Virus record (IMG/VR): IMGVR_UViG_2728369554_000022
Location: 1 to 17,352 of that record
Direction: 5' to 3' (one strand)
DNA length: 17,352 nt
DNA from: a virus
Lineage: Duplodnaviria; Heunggongvirae; Uroviricota; Caudoviricetes
Positions 3,548 through 17,352 of the stretch are shown one piece after another. The notes under the pieces are model-generated. The model was not told where the DNA came from and did no database searches. It saw only the letters and a program-made list of their open reading frames with translations. The translations under genes and the position numbers were made by a program. Positions within the stretch are counted from its first letter, which is position 1. Each line of letters starts with the position of its first letter.

Positions 3548-3579
3548 AAAATAAAAACAAAAACCCGCCGAAGCGGGTT
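3548..3579 (-). terminator. Rho-independent terminator of the hok transcript
   Basis: Minus strand: AACCCGC-ttcg-GCGGGTT followed by TTTGTTTTTATTTT. Confidence 0.65.
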
Positions 3580-3647
3580 AAGTGCGGGTGCGTTGAAGAT
3601 GCCTGACACATCATAGGCGGCGAGGGATTTCTCCCTCGCCTGGTCTC

Positions 3648-3803
3648 TTACTCCTCAGGTTCGTAAGCTGTGAAGACAGCGACCTCCGTCTGGCCGGTTC
3701 GGATTCGTACCTCGCAGAGGTCTTTCCTCGTTACCAGTGCCGTCACTATGACGGTTAAACAGATGACGATCAGGACGATTAACATCGCCTTTTGCTGCTT
3801 CAT
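3648..3803 (-). CDS. hokD: Hok/Gef-family type I toxin (51 aa)
   Basis: MKQQKAMLIVLIVICLTVIVTALVTRKDLCEVRIRTGQTEVAVFTAYEPEE, near-identical to recalled HokD/RelF; AAGGAGA upstream of ATG 3803. In-frame upstream ATG at 3860 gives a 70-aa mok-like extension. Confidence 0.8.
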   Translation of the reverse strand: MKQQKAMLIVLIVICLTVIVTALVTRKDLCEVRIRTGQTEVAVFTAYEPEE

Positions 3804-3975
3804 AGCCTGCTTCTCCTTGCCTTTCGGCACGTAAGAGGCTAACCTACATTTGTGAGACATAGATTGGGCCTCAGATTAATGTTAAGCGTCTTGCAGGACG
3901 CGTAATGTTAACTGGGGCTTTTCTCTATCTGCCTTTGGTGTTCATGCCCGAGGCAGATAGCCTCAAGCACCCGCA
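3804..3975. promoter_or_regulatory. hok leader with candidate antisense (Sok-like) region and structured elements
   Basis: Direct repeat TAATGTTAA (3876-3884, 3903-3911) flanking hairpin GCGTC-ttgcag-GACGC; 10-bp stem CTATCTGCCT/AGGCAGATAG at ~3937-3972. Sok promoter not defined. Confidence 0.35.
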
Positions 3976-4093: not shown

Positions 4094-4798
4094 TCATTGA
4101 TTCACCTCCTGCGGCGGTTCTGGTAGCGGCATCCAGTGAGTTGAGCTCTCTACTTCGACGCCGTCTTTGTCCACAAAAGCCATCTTATTCCCGCCACGAG
4201 TGGGGCAAAAAACCTTATCCCAGGAACCGGGGAATATATTCCCGAGATCATCGAGAAGAATCACATCGCAATATTCAGCAGGAACTGCATCACTACAGCT
4301 TATCCAGCCAGCCGGAGTTCCCGGAGAGCTGGTTGACGTTTCCGAGATTTCCCGAAAATTGTTGGTTGACGAATTCTTACTTTCCCGAAAGTTTTCGGCC
4401 TGAAGCATGGCGACACGGCAGGCGTTCCAGCCATCAGCATATGTTTCAGTTACACCGTCGAGATGGCAGGTAAGCAAATCCATTTCATCAGGCACTACCA
4501 TCGCTGGCGGCGCTGCGTAAAGCGGTGTTATTTCTGCCCGAAAATCACCTACTTTATGCAGTCGCACCCACCGTTCGATTTCTGCTTTGTCAGAATTCAT
4601 AAGGGTGAACGTATTACATTCATGGTTAATTTGCGTGAAGGTTGCCTTCCACGCCACCGGCTCTGCTTCCAGTGATGCCAGTGCAATTTTGAATAACTCG
4701 CCCTCTACCTGCGCCATCCCTGAATTTGGGTGGCATTTCGCAATCGCTATTTTTAATTTGGCTTCTTCGATTAATTGCTCTTTGGTTAATTCAGTCAT
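4094..4798 (-). CDS. Hypothetical phage protein (234 aa), C-terminus resembles DUF551
   Basis: ATG at 4798. C-terminal WIS.SD..P and THWMPLPEPP pattern recalls DUF551 from memory. Confidence 0.5.
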   Translation of the reverse strand: MTELTKEQLIEEAKLKIAIAKCHPNSGMAQVEGELFKIALASLEAEPVAWKATFTQINHECNTFTLMNSDKAEIERWVRLHKVGDFRAEITPLYAAPPAMVVPDEMDLLTCHLDGVTETYADGWNACRVAMLQAENFRESKNSSTNNFREISETSTSSPGTPAGWISCSDAVPAEYCDVILLDDLGNIFPGSWDKVFCPTRGGNKMAFVDKDGVEVESSTHWMPLPEPPQEVNQ

Positions 4799-4928
4799 TT
4801 TTCATTACCGCCCTTTCAGGCGGCCTCCTGATGTTCTGAGGGTGCAGAAATCCCTCCGGTTAAGGATTTAATAAAATTCACTTCTGATTTAAATTTTCAG
4901 TATTTTGTTGTCAGGTGGTTTATCGCCT

Positions 4929-5240
4929 TTATGCTTCAGTCTTATTTCTCAGCCATACACAAACAGGACCATCTTCAGTGTCATGAATGGAACCAATGAA
5001 CCAGCCTTCACCTTCCGGGCGCTCCGGTTTCCAGGAGGCAATATCGGGACCATCTGCGTCCAGATTAAAATCATCTTCATCCATAGTTCTGATGGTCCAT
5101 TGAAGATTATTTTCCTCCATCCATGCGTTAAACTCTTCCGTTGAAATATGTTCTCTACCATCACAGAATTTTTCATATTCAGGATGCGTCCAGCAGCCAT
5201 ATTCATCACGTACTACTGGTATTTCTTTAATTTCATTCAT
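4929..5240 (-). CDS. Highly acidic small phage protein (103 aa), function unknown
   Basis: ATG at 5240 with GGGAGA upstream; ~25% D+E, Trp-rich; stop overlaps next gene. Confidence 0.5.
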   Translation of the reverse strand: MNEIKEIPVVRDEYGCWTHPEYEKFCDGREHISTEEFNAWMEENNLQWTIRTMDEDDFNLDADGPDIASWKPERPEGEGWFIGSIHDTEDGPVCVWLRNKTEA

Positions 5241-5487
5241 TTCTGTTCTCCCACGTTTTCAGACTTTCACCACAGAACGGACAAAATGAAACCCGCACTG
5301 GTAATTTAGAAAATTCACCGGAACGCAACATCACCAAATCAGGGTCGCGAGTTAAATTCTCATTCCAGATTTTGTATATCAGCAGACCTTTTCGCGTCGT
5401 GTATTCAGCATCATGCTCAAGGGCTTTTGCCAGTACCGCACATGGTTCTATCTGATTGCTATTAACCTGACATTTTGATTCGCTCAC
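5233..5487 (-). CDS. Small Cys-containing protein (84 aa), possible zinc ribbon
   Basis: GTG at 5487 overlaps upstream TGA (GTGA) with AGGAGG upstream; Cys at 6, 16 and a CPFCG motif. Confidence 0.45.
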   Translation of the reverse strand: MSESKCQVNSNQIEPCAVLAKALEHDAEYTTRKGLLIYKIWNENLTRDPDLVMLRSGEFSKLPVRVSFCPFCGESLKTWENRNE

Positions 5488-5906
5488 AGCATCACCTCCT
5501 GAAATTCCCCCTGATAAAACGCCAGCACTCGCTGCATAACCTCACTCTTCCGGCACTCGCGACAGATTATGTTCTGACGCCTGTCGTAGCGGCGTATTTC
5601 TCCGTCAGGTAATGACCTGATAAGGTCCGGATCAACCACAGCCGTTTTCTTCACCTTTGCCCTTGAGAGTTTTTTGCGGGCGTTTTGCCAGTCCTTACGG
5701 GCCTGTTCAGAGGGAAATAACCCGTAGCCAGAGTTGTATACATCACCACTAGCAACCAGCTCTCTGGCGAGAACACTCATCAGATATCTTGTCGCACCTG
5801 TTTTCGCTTCCAGTTGCCGTAACGTCTCGCGCCCACTCCGGCGTACTAGCTCAACAACCTGCCCTTTAATTTTTTCTCGCTCTTCCTGTGTAAATACTTT
5901 TGCCAT
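5484..5906 (-). CDS. Hypothetical phage protein (141 aa) with winged-helix-like N-terminus
   Basis: ATG at 5906 with GGGGAGG upstream; track start at 5972 is TTG without RBS. Confidence 0.5.
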   Translation of the reverse strand: MAKVFTQEEREKIKGQVVELVRRSGRETLRQLEAKTGATRYLMSVLARELVASGDVYNSGYGLFPSEQARKDWQNARKKLSRAKVKKTAVVDPDLIRSLPDGEIRRYDRRQNIICRECRKSEVMQRVLAFYQGEFQEVML

Positions 5907-5922
5907 AAGCCCTCCCCAGGAA

Positions 5923-6684
5923 TCACTTTTCCGACACAATACGACTGGAGGAATCAACAATCTGTCGAACAATATCCCGGTGCTTATTCAGCTCCCGCAG
6001 CGCGGCGCAGACACGCTCCCACTTCTGGACATGACTTTTCGCCCGACGCAGTTCGCGGTTTGCCATATGCAGCGATGGTAAAACCAGGTCATCCGCTTGC
6101 GTTTCGGCGAACGGTGGCAACGACTGCACAATATCCGCCACAGTTTCTGTTTTAATATCTTCCTGTGTTGCAGCTTCCTGTACTGGTAACGCAACACCGG
6201 CTGGCTGAGGAAAGGCTTTACCATCAGTTTCCGCTACCGATGCCGCTTTCGGCTCTGCTGGTAAATTACCGCCCGGCATGCAGTAACGAAATTTACCGTT
6301 CTGATTAACACGAATCAGACGACCTTTGCTGATTGCCATTGCCAGCGTTGAAGCCACTTTGCGGGATGTTGTACCGAACAGCGTAGCCAGTTCATCCGCC
6401 GTTTGTGGTCCGCGTTGTTCAATCGTCGCGGTTAAATCGCACTCTGAGATTTTCGCTACTGTCGCCGTGCTGGTTTCTTCCGGCTGTTCTTCTGGCGCTG
6501 GCTGTTCCTGCTGAACGTTGTTATCAGCCACACGCCAGGTGTATGCGCTTTTATCAACGAAGCCAGCCTTTTTAAGTTCCCACAGCTCATTCAGCACTTC
6601 TTCACGACTGATATCAAGTCGCGCAGCCAGCTCTACCGACGTGGCTTTTCCCATCGCTTTCAGTGCGTCAAAAACAGTCTCCAT
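5923..6684 (-). CDS. Phage protein with two winged-helix-like segments (DUF1627-like), 253 aa
   Basis: ATG at 6684 with GGGAGG upstream; acidic linker; sits downstream of the DnaC-like gene. Confidence 0.5.
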
Positions 6685-6704: not shown

Positions 6705-7451
6705 TTACTTTTCAATACCTGGCTGACCAACATTCGGGCGCCAGCTCTCCCAGTTAAAATTCACCCAGCGCCCGCCGTTCATGGTCATGCGATCCATAAT
6801 CCGCTCGCCGAGCAATGTTTTCATGGCCTCATAGTTCAGGTTTGTCAGCATTCCCACGCTACGCATCGACGCTGTCCGTCGATCAATAATCTGGTGCAGT
6901 ACCACCTGCTCGTTTTTCGTCTCGCGCTGAATGCCAATTTCATCAAGAACCAGCAGATCCACTTCGCACAGTTCCCGCAAAAATTTTTCGCCTGACTGCC
7001 CGTCGTCATAGCTGGCGTGCAGGGCGCTCATAACATCAGCCACGGTAACCACAATCACTGTCTGACCGTCTTTCAGCAGGCGATTCCCGATAGCTGCCGC
7101 TAAGTGATTCTTCCCGGTACCAGGTTTTCCGCTGAACGCAAAATTTGTACACCCGGTCATCAGTTCATCGGCGATGGATTTCGCCTGGCTTAACGCGTAT
7201 CGCTGGCCGTCGTTCTGCACCTGGTAATTCGCAAACGAGCATTTACGGTGCAACGGCTGGATGCCTGAGCGATTCAGAATTTTTTCCACCCGCAACTGGC
7301 GATTCAGGCGGTTGATCTCCTCGCTACGTTTCTGGCCTTCAGCAAGTTGCCACTCGCGCCACTCCGCAACCGTTCTGAATGGGGCGGTTACATGTGGTGG
7401 GGTCAGTCTGCGGATACGCTCCAGAACGCCTCCTGTCGCAATATTTTTCAT
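6705..7451 (-). CDS. DnaC-like replicative helicase loader (AAA+ ATPase, YdaV-like), 248 aa
   Basis: Walker [16 protein letters not shown] and Walker B LLVLDEIG; position after the initiator gene. Confidence 0.85.
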
Positions 7452-7457
7452 GGTCTG

Positions 7458-8252
7458 TTACCCCCTGAAGCCTGGCGGGATCGCACTGTCCGGCAACGAG
7501 ACGGTGTTAACCTGTCGGAGCAACGTCTCAGGCCGAACACCTTTCGGCGCGAACAGGCCCTGGTATTCATTGGCGATGCTGTGTCGAATCACCTGCTCAG
7601 GTGTAAAACCCTGCTGACGGAATTTTTCCAGTTCCCGTATCGCCCCGTTAGCGCCCTGCTCCGTTCGAATCGGTTTTCGCAATGCCTGTCTGAACCGGAC
7701 CCACTCATGCCAGAGTGTTTCCGGCAACCAATCGGGCAGCTCAATAGCCTCCGGCTCGAATTTTTTAGACGCTCGTTTTTGGCGAGGGGGATTTAGGGGG
7801 AGATCAGTATTTAGATCTTCCTCTTCCTCTTCCTCTTCCTCTGGTAGCGCTTTTTGATCCGTTTGTGTAACGCCGGCAGCGTTACCTTTTCGTTTCAGTT
7901 CACGTATTTTTGTAACTCGCTCGTTTGTAACCGCCCGTTTTTTAGAGCTTTTTCCGTTATGGCGTTCAAAGTTAGGTAGAGAAAGCCCAACGTCATTTTC
8001 GACCAGCCATCCAACCTGAATTAACGCATCAGCAAAACCAGCCATAAAAGTGATGCGATCTATTGCACTTTTTGTAACGCCGCGAGCGTTACAATCTGCA
8101 TTACCGTCTATCATTTGTTGATCCGCCCATGCCCAGAAGCGAATAACCTTCCCTAATGCGGCATCTGGATCAATATTCAGAATCTCAGCAAGCCTGAATA
8201 TTTCCGGCTTATCCGGCGTAATAACCTCGAGCTTTATCCAGTTTGAAGCCAT
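7458..8252 (-). CDS. Replication initiator / replisome organiser (YdaU-like, lambda O analogue), 264 aa
   Basis: ATG at 8252 with AAGGTG upstream; poly-Glu linker; contains two of the three 19-bp palindromes; immediately precedes the DnaC-like gene. Confidence 0.5.
   Translation of the reverse strand: MASNWIKLEVITPDKPEIFRLAEILNIDPDAALGKVIRFWAWADQQMIDGNADCNARGVTKSAIDRITFMAGFADALIQVGWLVENDVGLSLPNFERHNGKSSKKRAVTNERVTKIRELKRKGNAAGVTQTDQKALPEEEEEEEEDLNTDLPLNPPRQKRASKKFEPEAIELPDWLPETLWHEWVRFRQALRKPIRTEQGANGAIRELEKFRQQGFTPEQVIRHSIANEYQGLFAPKGVRPETLLRQVNTVSLPDSAIPPGFRG
7817..7842. repeat. Hexanucleotide tandem repeat (CTCTTC)n encoding a poly-Glu tract
   Basis: cttcctcttcctcttcctcttcctct encodes EEEEEEEE on the minus strand. 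Confidence 0.8.
7867..7885. repeat. 19-bp palindrome GTAACGC-N5-GCGTTAC, copy 1 (inside initiator gene)
   Basis: gtaacgccggcagcgttac read directly. Confidence 0.8.
8074..8092. repeat. 19-bp palindrome GTAACGC-N5-GCGTTAC, copy 2 (inside initiator gene)
   Basis: gtaacgccgcgagcgttac, with flanking TT/AA extending the symmetry. Confidence 0.8.
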
Positions 8253-14849: not shown

Positions 14850-14868
14850 TGGCGGTGTAATGCACCGC
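14850..14868 (+). other. GC-rich hairpin between recT and ralR (possible attenuator)
   Basis: GGCGGTG-taat-GCACCGCC; T-run begins ~12 nt downstream, so not a canonical terminator. Confidence 0.3.
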
Positions 14869-14898
14869 CAACTTGAAATATTTTTTATGAGAAAAATT

Positions 14899-15093
14899 AT
14901 GAGATATGACAATGTTAAACCATGTCCATTTTGTGGTTGTCCATCAGTAACGGTGAAAGCCATTTCAGGATATTACCGAGCGAAGTGTAACGGATGCGAA
15001 TCCCGAACCGGTTATGGTGGAAGTGAAAAAGAAGCACTCGAAAGATGGAATAAACGAACCACTGAAAATATTAATGGAGGCTTTCATGTATAA
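14899..15093 (+). CDS. ralR: RalR/Lar restriction-alleviation protein (64 aa)
   Basis: MRYDNVKPCPFCGCPSVTVKAISGYYRAKCNGCESR..., zinc-ribbon-like, recognised as Rac Lar. Confidence 0.8.
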   Translation: MRYDNVKPCPFCGCPSVTVKAISGYYRAKCNGCESRTGYGGSEKEALERWNKRTTENINGGFHV

Positions 15094-15274
15094 AATTACC
15101 GCTACAATTGAAAAGGAAGGTGGCACTCCTACTAACTGGACAAGATATTCAAAATCTAAACTAACGAAATCGGAATGCGAAAAAATGCTCTCAGGGAAAA
15201 AAGAAGCAGGCGTTTCCAGAGAGCAGAAAGTAAAACTGATAAATTTTAATTGCGAGAAACTTCTGTCATCGTGA
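15086..15274 (+). CDS. ydaC: YdaC-like small protein (62 aa from this start)
   Basis: ATG at 15086 with GGAGG 5 nt upstream, overlapping ralR stop; synteny with Rac ydaC. Confidence 0.55.
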   Translation: MYKITATIEKEGGTPTNWTRYSKSKLTKSECEKMLSGKKEAGVSREQKVKLINFNCEKLLSS

Positions 15275-16704: not shown

Positions 16705-16751
16705 TTTTAACGTAAATGGATTGTTAAATGTATTTTGGTTGTGATATAACC

Positions 16752-16853
16752 AAAAAAGACCGAATACGATTCCTGTATTCGGTCCAGGGAAATGGCTCTT
16801 GGGAGAGAGCCGTGCGCTAAAAGTTGGCATTAATGCAGGCTTAGTTGCCTTGC
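16752..16853 (-). ncRNA. sdsR: SdsR (RyeB) sRNA
   Basis: Minus strand reads GCAAGGCAACTAAGCCTGCATTAATGCC...GACCGAATACAGGAATCGTATTCGGTC-TTTTTT, matching recalled SdsR with its terminator; sigma-S-like -10 TCTATTCTTAA just upstream. Confidence 0.8.
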
Positions 16854-16982
16854 TCTTTAAGAATAGATGACGACGCCAGGTTTTCCAGTTTGCGTGCAAA
16901 ATGGTCAATAAAAAGCGTGGTGGTCATCAGCTTAAATGTTAAAAACCGCCCGTTCTGGTGAAAGAACTGAGGCGGTTTTTTA
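16758..16982 (+). ncRNA. ryeA: RyeA (SraC) antisense sRNA candidate overlapping sdsR; 5' end uncertain
   Basis: Known bidirectional sRNA locus; candidate promoter TTGTTA (16721-16726) and TATAAC (16745-16750); terminator at 16941-16982. Confidence 0.35.
16941..16982. terminator. Bidirectional terminator between RyeA and the yebY-like gene
   Basis: ACCGCC-[CGTTCT-ggtgaa-AGAACT]-GAGGCGGT flanked by A-run and T-run. Confidence 0.6.
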
Positions 16983-17010
16983 TTGGAAATCAAAAGGCTA
17001 TTTTAGGTAA

Positions 17011-17352
17011 TTAACAGAGTTTTTCAGCTCGCTCTATAAACGGTGCCAGACTCATTTTTTCGCCGGGATTGTTAGGATCATCAATCTGAATCACCGAAAT
17101 GGGTTGGGCTTTAGTCTTCCCACTGGCAACTTCCTTTTGTGCGATATCGTTTAAAGGATACTGCACGAGGGTACTTGGGTTAATGACATACAAAGCATTA
17201 CCCGGTCGGCAAGTCAACATCACCTCTTCGCGATTAAACGCCCATTTGTCTTTACCCACTTCAAAACGGCTGACGGTAATCACCTGCGGTGCCGCCAGCG
17301 CAGCTGCAGAACTGGTGAGTAACAGAAACGCCAGAATACTTTTTCTCATCAT
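17011..17352 (-). CDS. yebY: YebY-like secreted protein (DUF2511-like), 113 aa; start codon at window edge
   Basis: Signal peptide [20 protein letters not shown]; adjacency to the sdsR/ryeA locus matches recalled pphA-ryeA/ryeB-yebY arrangement. Confidence 0.5.

Follow-up and report, generated by a model that had tools for sequence, protein, structure and literature searches.

In phage lambda, the ren gene is located after the replication gene P, and the ren/nin stretch between P and Q consists of small, non-essential genes of mosaic composition. The phenotype by which ren is defined is resistance to Rex exclusion, and growth of lambda on non-Rex hosts does not depend on ren. The Ren protein interacts with the Rex proteins in two-hybrid experiments and is presumed to take part in replication (bioRxiv 10.1101/2021.04.19.439022). 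Among Rac-type elements, phage Rac-SA53 carries the gene order ydaW-lygF-rac19-ead-rac21-rac22, and the Rac prophage of E. coli K-12 encodes an N-terminal fragment of YdaW. In a screen, this fragment emerged as a blocker of RcaT, the toxin of retron-Sen2 (bioRxiv 10.1101/2020.06.22.160242). Rows of small early genes are likewise found in the exo-xis/ea regions of lambdoid phages, where Ead/Ea22 and DUF551 genes are located. DUF551 is a portable C-terminal domain of acidic, mosaic proteins such as Ea22 variant V2 of Stx phages and YfdS of CPS-53; YfdS in multicopy contributes to inhibiting the initiation of host replication (PMC4776307).

The window analysed here, a stretch of 17,352 nucleotides of caudoviral DNA (IMG/VR record IMGVR_UViG_2728369554_000022), harbors a comparable row of five genes, designated g1 to g5 in operon order (Table 1). 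A preliminary description made from the sequence had reported five co-oriented open reading frames at 4094-6684; their sizes and coordinates were confirmed, all on the minus strand. Genes for a cro-like protein, a YdaT-like protein, an O-like initiator and a DnaC-like helicase loader precede the block on the same strand, and hok/sok, NinB-like DUF1367, DUF1364 and Q-like genes follow it. These flanking genes bear out the placement in the slot equivalent to ren/nin, with the replication module on one side and hok on the other. The region belongs to the early-right operon of a lambdoid prophage of the Rac-like type, probably as its variable ren/nin-proximal segment. As in lambda, the stretch appears to be made up of non-essential, mosaic small genes, with g2 located after a replication gene (here the DnaC-like loader, followed by g1) and ahead of NinB-like and Q-like genes. 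In contrast to lambda, which has no counterpart of g1, the window lacks ninA and the ninC-ninI set, and hok/sok is inserted ahead of the NinB-like gene. The prophage adjoins ryeA/ryeB and a yebY-like gene and is not located at the Rac site of K-12.

Table 1. Features of the five-gene block, in positions of the window.
Feature	Position	Strand	Size and properties	Assignment
g1	5923..6684	-	253 aa	DUF1627 / YdaW-family protein
g2	5484..5909	-	141 aa, pI 9.9, basic	DUF977, "LygF" in phage records; assigned homologue of lambda Ren
g3	5233..5487	-	84 aa, GTG start	small Cys4 protein; rac21 in phage Rac-SA53
g4	4929..5240	-	103 aa, acidic	unnamed phage domain family; rac22 in Rac-SA53
g4-g5 leader/linker	4799..4928	-	130 nt	conserved, non-coding
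g5	4094..4798	-	234 aa, acidic	internally mosaic; C-terminal DUF551

The genes are separated by 20 nt (DnaC-like gene to g1), 13 nt (g1-g2) and 130 nt (g4-g5). Both overlaps noted earlier are present on the minus strand, GTGA at 5484-5487 for the g2 stop and g3 start and ATGAATGA at 5233-5240 for the g3 stop and g4 start, so that the co-translation proposed for the block holds for the part from g2 via g3 to g4. The start codon of g2 is the ATG at 5909, while the mechanical open reading frame extends back to a TTG at 5972. In strain VG48B2, the corresponding locus is 96.9% identical and the RefSeq calls for g1 to g4 share the boundaries given here, with g2 one codon shorter. The G+C content of g3 and g4 is 0.42 compared to 0.51-0.52 for g1 and g2. 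All five genes are under purifying selection and are more than chance open reading frames, since dN/dS against the window allele is between 0.10 and 0.33 (g1, 0.14; g2, 0.10; g3 to g5, 0.15-0.33, the g5 value of 0.33 being derived from two alleles) and close homologues are found in thousands of genomes. No functional study of the five genes was found in the literature.

By profile searches, as suggested in the preliminary description, all five proteins fall in catalogued families. The g1 protein covers the whole Pfam profile DUF1627 (PF07789; positions 1-155 of 155, 329.7 bits with a cut-off of 28.1, E = 2.9e-99) and matches phrog_630 (4.3e-130); its close relatives are named "DUF1627 domain-containing protein" in RefSeq. 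An alignment showed three conserved parts separated by variable linkers, namely a winged helix at the N-terminus (about residues 1-53), another winged-helix-like part (about 76-136) and a C-terminal helix (about 200-245). Matches to winged-helix profiles include HTH_20 (7.8e-6), TrmB, MarR and others. All of the 120 homologue matches listed are at least 80% identical to g1, most of them at least 85%, which is too shallow for building a useful profile or structure model. The ydaW fragment of K-12 corresponds to about the N-terminal 150 residues of g1 (91.8% nucleotide identity), whereas g1 represents full-length YdaW. A Ren-like second winged helix in g1 was considered on the basis of a weak hmmscan match (E = 3.9e-5) and was not confirmed by hhalign; BLASTP of g1 against g2 and of g1 against Ren was negative.

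The g2 protein matches Pfam DUF977 (PF06163) over the full profile (112.3 bits, cut-off 22.1, E = 2.3e-32), a family to which a winged-helix fold was assigned through profile searches (PMC2686095). The two winged-helix-like proteins noticed earlier are g1, by its HTH matches, and g2, by the fold assignment of its family. Both g2 (7.5e-48) and lambda Ren (1.6e-41) match phrog_142, annotated as "Ren-like exclusion protein", and they have a C-terminal motif in common (CRECRxSxxMxRVLAxY; 11 of 20 residues identical, BLASTP E = 2e-6). Judged by sequence and position, g2 is a homologue of lambda Ren in the ren position, although Ren is shorter (96 aa) and has no match to Pfam DUF977. The earlier statement that none of the genes has an assignable function was slightly too strong for g2, which shares PHROG and position with Ren.

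The position of g1 and g2 is highly constant. In all 193 loci examined, g1 was found directly 3' of a replication gene, either a DnaC-like loader (139) or a lambda-P-like gene (54). Where g1 is missing, g2 takes this place in 99 of 100 loci, the remaining one having a truncated g1 ahead of g2; altogether, one of the two genes directly follows the replication gene in 292 of 293 loci. The first module of the block would be the winged-helix pair g1 and g2, placed directly after replication genes of whatever type, like ren after P. The constancy of position next to DnaC-type, P-type and other initiators also fits an alternative in which g1 and g2 serve initiation at the phage origin, as regulators or co-factors, and are not counter-defence proteins, with the other genes as unrelated passengers. 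Their winged helices make DNA binding probable, and for lambda ren the wording "likely involved in DNA replication" has been used, Ren and O having been assayed jointly for interaction with Rex (bioRxiv 10.1101/2021.04.19.439022). On the other hand, many prophages encode g2 without g1 (full-length genes in 3648 and 1330 genomes, respectively), and the occurrence of g2 beside several unrelated initiator types argues against a specific partner. The dispensability of ren on non-Rex hosts, known from lambda genetics, also weighs against this alternative, which is considered unlikely. The two proteins could also be plain transcription regulators.

The g3 protein belongs to phrog_4030 (1.8e-38) and has no match in Pfam. 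Its homologues form 69 protein clusters, nearly all from Escherichia, with Salmonella and Citrobacter represented as well. Each of the four cysteines C6, C16, C69 and C72 is kept in at least 90% of the homologues; one pair forms a CxxC knuckle (CPFC), the other is spaced as C-x9-C. The possible zinc ribbon (CPFCG) of the preliminary description is this knuckle; typical zinc ribbons have two knuckles, often both CxxC, on two beta-hairpins. A sequence search of the five proteins against solved structures gave a single weak match, that of g3 to the RpoM-2 ribbon (phmmer E = 0.0031), and the AlphaFold2 model of g3 was unusable (pLDDT 43). An NCBIfam search of the five proteins yielded nothing informative.

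The gene described earlier as highly acidic is g4 (pI 4.24; 26 D and E against 9 K and R), a member of phrog_1372. For this protein, a confident model of an alpha/beta protein was obtained (pLDDT 83). The family comprises 935 representative clusters, with 14 residues invariant across Enterobacterales and the conserved motifs RDxxGxWTHP and GWFxGSIHDTEDGPxCxWxR. Fusions of the g4-type domain with a Lar restriction-alleviation, a Tad2-like or an exoribonuclease domain account for 7 of the 52 long homologues. An assignment of g3 as Lar-like (PF14354), or of g3 and g4 together as a split version of the Lar-g4 fusion, found no support outside the CPFCG knuckle: g3 had no Pfam match, and hhalign of g3 with a Lar-g4 fusion protein and with RalR of the window aligned only 14-15 columns around CPFCG at a probability of 21-40%. 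A DUF551-like C-terminal half of g4 (hhalign probability 0.1%) and a mutual relatedness of g3 and g4 were likewise dismissed by comparison. The g3-g4 pair is intact in the genomes of the plaque-forming phages mEp460_4F5 and Rac-SA53; in mEp460 (mEp460_4F5), it is located in the early-left region beside Eae and YfdR-like genes. The small Cys4 protein g3 and the acidic alpha/beta protein g4, translationally coupled, would constitute the second module.

The fusions of g4 and the published findings on Ren and YdaW would also suit a more specific variant, in which the slot after the replication genes is a dedicated counter-defence locus, with g1 and g2 directed against Rex or retron toxins, the g4 domain as a new anti-restriction or anti-defence module and g3 as its zinc-binding partner. 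This variant is regarded as quite unlikely. In a search with the PADLOC-DB 2.0 defence models, g2 to g5 had no match, and those of g1 were weak HTH matches (E = 1.6e-4 or worse), namely to regulators of the Csa3/CARF type and to a SWIM model.

The DUF551-like C-terminus mentioned in the preliminary description belongs to g5, in which residues 164-230 cover Pfam DUF551 (PF04448) completely (positions 1-68 of 68, 68.8 bits, cut-off 22, E = 7.4e-19). The N-terminal module (residues 1-134) falls in phrog_5117/660. With its portable C-terminal DUF551, its acidity and its mosaic structure, g5 resembles Ea22 variant V2 and YfdS in sequence; the pro-lysogenic (Ea22) and replication-inhibiting (YfdQRS) phenotypes are features of those systems. 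Moreover, Ead/Ea22-type genes are located early-left, whereas g5 is early-right and has no match to Pfam Ead_Ea22 (PF13935) at E up to 0.01; a protein from the neighbouring slot of a sibling locus matches this profile at 1.5e-25. The 130-nt leader ahead of g5 ends with AGGAGG and a GC hairpin (CCGCCUGAAAGGGCGG), followed by the ATG of g5. It is found in 2466 of 5426 complete E. coli genomes ahead of varied genes (DUF7167, DUF4014 and DUF551-type). Its fold is not significantly stable (z-score -1.4), and no Rfam family was found in it or elsewhere in the region, either at the gathering threshold or at E up to 1. As a mosaic DUF551 protein behind this widely shared leader, g5 would be the third module. 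A consensus scan detected a terminator after hok; within the block of five genes, it gave no minus-strand promoter or terminator. Since the scan is insensitive and did not pick up the promoter of hok either, which must exist, internal promoters may be present, especially in the conserved leader.

The slot is used for accessory cargo, as had been supposed, and variable genes occupy it in sibling prophages. The 70 distinct intervals between the DnaC-like gene and hok span 2.3-5.9 kb, and the alternative genes in sibling intervals encode a NACHT NTPase, HNH, DUF4406, Mom-like and Ead/Ea22 proteins. In Rac-SA53, lygF, rac21 and rac22 correspond to g2, g3 and g4 in the same order and operon as in the window, with about 91% nucleotide identity over the matched parts; two extra genes (rac19 and ead) separate lygF from rac21, and IS1 and other genes are present where the window has g5.

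The distribution was surveyed in the 5426 complete E. coli genomes, and co-occurrence was counted separately in IMG/VR loci. While any piece of the block was detected in 4540 genomes, all five genes were found together in 12. Individually, g2 was present in 3648 genomes, g1 in 1330 (both counted as full-length), g3 together with g4 in 252 and full-length g5 in 19, with pieces of g5 in 1466; the prevalence differs about 300-fold between genes. In IMG/VR, about 3-4 contigs carry all five. Relative to the complete set, single genes are more common by a factor of 2 to 300. The gene order is conserved across loci, but presence varies gene by gene: g1 is accompanied by g2 in 56 of 57 loci, while g2 lacks g1 in 15 of 47; among 47 loci with g3, 44 also have g2 and 36 have g4, but just 18 of 38 loci with g4 have g3.

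The five genes are hence not a travelling unit, and the term cassette used in the preliminary description does not apply. Of the two observations named there as speaking against it, independent scattering across phages was found, while known housekeeping functions were not. The five are widespread accessory genes from lambda-like prophages of E. coli, previously catalogued as genes of unassigned function, and are independently shuffled. A single co-functioning cargo cassette, for instance for superinfection exclusion or anti-phage defence to the benefit of the lysogen, would agree with the tight packing, the translational coupling of g2, g3 and g4, the placement of g2 in the PHROGs category "moron/host takeover" and the presence of a recognised defence-type cargo, a 752-aa NACHT STAND NTPase, in a sibling slot. 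It is very unlikely in view of the rarity of the complete set (12 of 5426 genomes, about 3-4 IMG/VR contigs), the lack of a meaningful PADLOC match for any of the five, their orientation with the lytic operon and the lack of a detected promoter, and the g3-g4 pair in another operon context in mEp460. A further alternative takes g3, g4 and g5 for annotation noise or for remnants that decay in a defective prophage. In its favour, the split pseudogene pieces of the g5 equivalent and the large deletions in the VG48B2 prophage, the rarity of intact g5 (19 genomes), and the missing Pfam family and poor AlphaFold2 model of g3 might be cited. It is extremely improbable given their dN/dS of 0.15-0.33, the invariant residues, cluster number and confident model of g4, the conserved cysteines of g3 and the intact pair in mEp460_4F5 and Rac-SA53.

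The preferred reading, to which we assign a probability of roughly 0.7, combines exchangeable modules with an accessory role in the lytic cycle; its functional leads come from homologues, a screen, domain fusions and another DUF551 protein. The block would consist of three or more modules that are exchanged independently of one another but keep a fixed order, and would not be one functional cassette. After induction, the genes are presumably expressed along with the replication genes, by read-through from the early-right promoter, while in the repressed lysogen they would be silent. All five would encode non-essential accessory proteins of the lytic cycle, of which g1 and g2 most likely counter exclusion (abortive-infection) systems of the host or of prophages or tune replication, while for g3, g4 and g5 the most likely role is modulation of the host or counter-defence.

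The arrangement in the window is one among many mosaic combinations and matters little as it stands. The genes themselves are very abundant early genes and rank among the commonest prophage genes of E. coli labelled "hypothetical", with relatives of g2 in about two thirds of the complete E. coli genomes, and for two of them published hints at counter-defence exist, for Ren against Rex and for YdaW as a blocker of a retron toxin. A function for the g1-g2 pair and for g4 could annotate thousands of genomes.

The five genes g1 to g5, which form a block of 2.6 kb between a DnaC-like gene and hok, comprise at least three independently exchangeable modules. Some piece of the block was found in 4540 of 5426 complete E. 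coli genomes (any match). With presence defined as at least 80% of the sequence length, g1 was found in 1330 of these genomes, g2 in 3648, g3 together with g4 in 252, g5 in 19 and the whole block in 12; no phage record holding 80% of the block was found. In addition, up to 80 loci per gene were surveyed in IMG/VR, the five genes and flanking markers being mapped on each. Among the loci mapped, the order g1, g2, g3, g4, g5, hok was kept without exception, and each gene can be absent. g1 was accompanied by g2 in 56 of 57 loci, while 15 of 47 loci with g2 lacked g1. g3 had g2 upstream in 44 of 47 loci and was followed by g4 in 36 of 47, whereas only 18 of 38 loci with g4 contained g3. The complete set was present on about three or four of the contigs mapped. 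The preliminary description had named the genes a cassette that might travel as a unit, which is not upheld by the 12 genomes with the whole block and the absence of single genes from IMG/VR loci. The G+C content is 0.42 in g3/g4 compared to 0.51-0.52 in g1/g2. Phage Rac-SA53 carries two additional genes between its g2 and g3 counterparts, and the plaque-forming lambdoid phage mEp460_4F5 harbors a 96.5% identical g3-g4 pair in the early-left region between integrase and repressor. A g3 homologue is located on the 102-kb plasmid pCTX_B2_4 in a row of Ead/Ea22 and DUF551 genes. Based on these counts, the G+C content, both phages and the plasmid, the block is one combination from a pool of exchangeable modules. 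The plasmid row adjoins an ISEcp1-blaCTX-M-15 insertion.

The slot from the DnaC-like gene to hok is a site of accessory cargo, as had been proposed, since its length varies and alternative genes are seen in sibling loci. The 70 distinct intervals are 2.3-5.9 kb long and contain ORFs of 127 clusters, some of them spurious. In four sibling loci, a NACHT STAND NTPase of 752 aa (PF05729; NCH1, PF22728, 1.2e-38) occupies the place of g3 to g5. Further alternatives are an HNH endonuclease, DUF4406, an Ead/Ea22 protein and a Mom-like protein, and methyltransferases, DUF7167 and DUF4014 genes are annotated in the slot in RefSeq.

The window is a Rac-like lambdoid prophage of E. coli (Table). Its int end borders ryeA/ryeB and a yebY-like ORF and the prophage is therefore not located at the K-12 Rac insertion site. 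The minus strand carries the early-right operon, in which cro-like, YdaT-like, O-like initiator and DnaC-like loader genes precede g1 to g5, followed by hok/sok, a 58-aa gene, DUF1367/NinB-like, DUF1364 and Q-like genes, then tRNA and lysis genes. The order of loader, g1 to g5 and hok/sok fits the placement previously assigned to the five genes. For sok, the Rfam match shares the strand of hok/mok, where an antisense RNA would be opposite, which is probably due to the way in which the family model was constructed. A sub-threshold match to isrK, a Salmonella sRNA family, overlaps the terminator hairpin just 3' of hok.

Table. Positions of the five genes and of associated features
Feature	Position	Strand	Remarks
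g1	5923-6684	minus	253 aa
g2	5484-5909	minus	141 aa
g3	5233-5487	minus	84 aa
g4	4929-5240	minus	103 aa
g5	4094-4798	minus	234 aa
Overlap GTGA	5484-5487	minus	g2/g3
Overlap ATGAATGA	5233-5240	minus	g3/g4
Non-coding gap	4799-4928	minus	130 nt
O-like initiator	7458-8252	minus	
DnaC-like helicase loader	6705-7451	minus	IstB_IS21 5.4e-20; phrog_50 4.6e-84
hok/sok		minus	operon, after g5; Pfam HOK_GEF 9.8e-23; Rfam sok 117.7 bits
Rfam sok match	3798-3972	minus	over hok mRNA leader
isrK match	3558-3639	minus	26.7 bits (gathering score 50), E 0.0056
Terminator after hok	3579-3562		consensus scan
recE, recT, ralR, xis, int		plus	
RalR (Lar)-type gene	14860-15270	plus	intact, CPFCG zinc knuckle
RalA antitoxin sRNA		opposite ralR	Rfam RalA, 210 bits
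ryeA/ryeB (SraC/SdsR) sRNA genes, yebY-like ORF	16747-17352		adjoin int end of prophage
NACHT STAND NTPase	L031 7209-9467		IMG/VR sibling prophage, between DnaC-like gene and hok
g3-g4 pair of mEp460_4F5	L396 4150-4708		
g3 homologue on pCTX_B2_4	L397 3479-3739		

g1 belongs to the DUF1627/YdaW family (Pfam E 2.9e-99). Several winged-helix matches, at the N-terminus and around residues 85-135 (Pfam), support the fold noted before, and in the alignment, two winged-helix blocks and a C-terminal helix are conserved, with variable linkers between. K-12 Rac ydaW is an N-terminal fragment of a g1-type gene. g2 (pI 9.9) is a DUF977 protein (E 2.3e-32), named "LygF" in phage records. The sole trace of lygF found in the literature is its entry, without a function, in the gene list of the Sdr I region, a region originally described from Salmonella Enteritidis. 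g2 matches phrog_142, "Ren-like exclusion protein" (7.5e-48), as does lambda Ren (1.6e-41), and both share a C-terminal motif (NIICRECRKSEVMQRVLAFY / NLVFKECRQSAAMKRVLAVY); unlike g2, lambda Ren has no Pfam DUF977 match. Directly upstream of g1, a DnaC-like loader was found in 139 loci and a lambda-P-like gene in 54. In 99 of 100 loci lacking g1, the gene immediately before g2 belongs to one of four replication-gene types; in the remaining one it is a truncated g1. Thus g1 and g2 are tied to replication genes, in contrast to the variable remainder of the slot. The O-like protein of the window and otherwise unrelated initiators encoded before g2 in different prophages (L226 and L121) have a common C-terminal tail, ...(E)IPPGFRG, which may be a shared docking motif.

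By analogy, the best lead for the g1/g2 pair is a putative role in counter-exclusion. Ren is labelled an exclusion protein by PHROG 142, and lambda ren is the gene by which lambda escapes Rex exclusion. A Ren-Rex protein interaction was reported in a two-hybrid assay (bioRxiv 10.1101/2021.04.19.439022), and the prophage genes that blocked the retron-Sen2 toxin when overexpressed in a screen included the K-12 ydaW fragment (bioRxiv 10.1101/2020.06.22.160242). Because of the strict adjacency to replication genes, the main alternative to counter-exclusion is that g1 and g2 tune replication.

The sole match of g3 is phrog_4030, a small family of 69 clusters, nearly all from Escherichia, plus Salmonella and Citrobacter. 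Regarding a possible zinc ribbon, four cysteines are conserved with a single CxxC knuckle, and the AlphaFold2 model is poor (pLDDT 43). g4 is acidic as described (pI 4.24); it has a match to phrog_1372 but none in Pfam. Across Enterobacterales, 14 of its residues are invariant, and its alpha/beta model is confident (pLDDT 83). When 1.84 billion representatives were searched with the g4 profile, 935 clusters were recovered, in many of which the domain is joined to other sequence. Among 52 long homologues, a Lar restriction-alleviation domain was found in three, Tad2-like in one, an Rv2179c-like exoribonuclease in two and other Pfam domains in four more, the remainder having no recognisable partner. 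In the three Lar clusters, the g4-type domain lies behind the Lar zinc ribbon; the g4 homologues P0325, P0369 and P0445 are listed with the fusions. Judged from sequence, these Lar, Tad2-like and exoribonuclease fusions hint at a counter-defence gene pool.

The DUF551 domain recognised earlier at the C-terminus of g5 was recovered (E 7.4e-19), while the N-terminal module matches unannotated PHROGs only. By megablast, g5 is a patchwork with pieces in 1466 of the 5426 E. coli genomes and full length in 19. Possible roles are suggested solely by other DUF551 proteins: YfdS in multicopy helps inhibit host replication initiation (PMC4776307), and an Stx-phage Ea22 variant carries the domain. A conserved copy of the gap before g5 (~90-100% identity) was found in 2466 of the 5426 genomes, where it precedes differing genes (DUF7167, DUF4014, DUF551-type). 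It ends with AGGAGG and a GC hairpin with a GNRA-like loop (CCGCCUGAAAGGGCGG), followed by the ATG of g5. Its fold has no significant stability (z -1.4). The gap may serve as a common leader for translation, as a weak promoter or as a linker for recombination.

The coordinates and sizes of the five ORFs and both overlaps agree with the preliminary description, and g2, g3 and g4 are translationally coupled. The g1 to g4 boundaries are identical in the RefSeq annotation of a 96.9% identical locus (strain VG48B2), where g2 is one codon shorter and the g5 counterpart is split into pseudogene pieces. The dN/dS values against the window allele (0.14 for g1, 0.10 for g2, 0.28 for g3, 0.15 for g4 and 0.33 for g5) indicate that all five are real protein-coding genes, and they are located in the early-right operon. 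A consensus scan of the minus strand identified no sigma-70-like promoter or intrinsic terminator within the block and a good terminator after hok, which is weak evidence, because the promoter that hok must have was missed as well. After induction, the five proteins would be produced alongside the replication proteins, and they may serve non-essential roles in the lytic cycle. That the five genes form one cassette for defence or exclusion is unlikely in view of the missing co-inheritance, the lack of a PADLOC match and of a detected promoter in the block, and the orientation shared with the lytic operon. Decay or annotation noise is also unlikely, given the selection signal, the conservation of the genes and their presence in plaque-forming phages.

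For all five genes, near-identical prophage genes, DUF-labelled or "hypothetical", have been deposited in the thousands. Among described arrangements, ydaW-lygF-...-rac21-rac22 of phage Rac-SA53 is the closest, and among characterised relatives lambda Ren. The block is no new kind of element. Early genes of this kind are extremely common; their exact five-gene combination is rare, an outcome that mosaic exchange produces.
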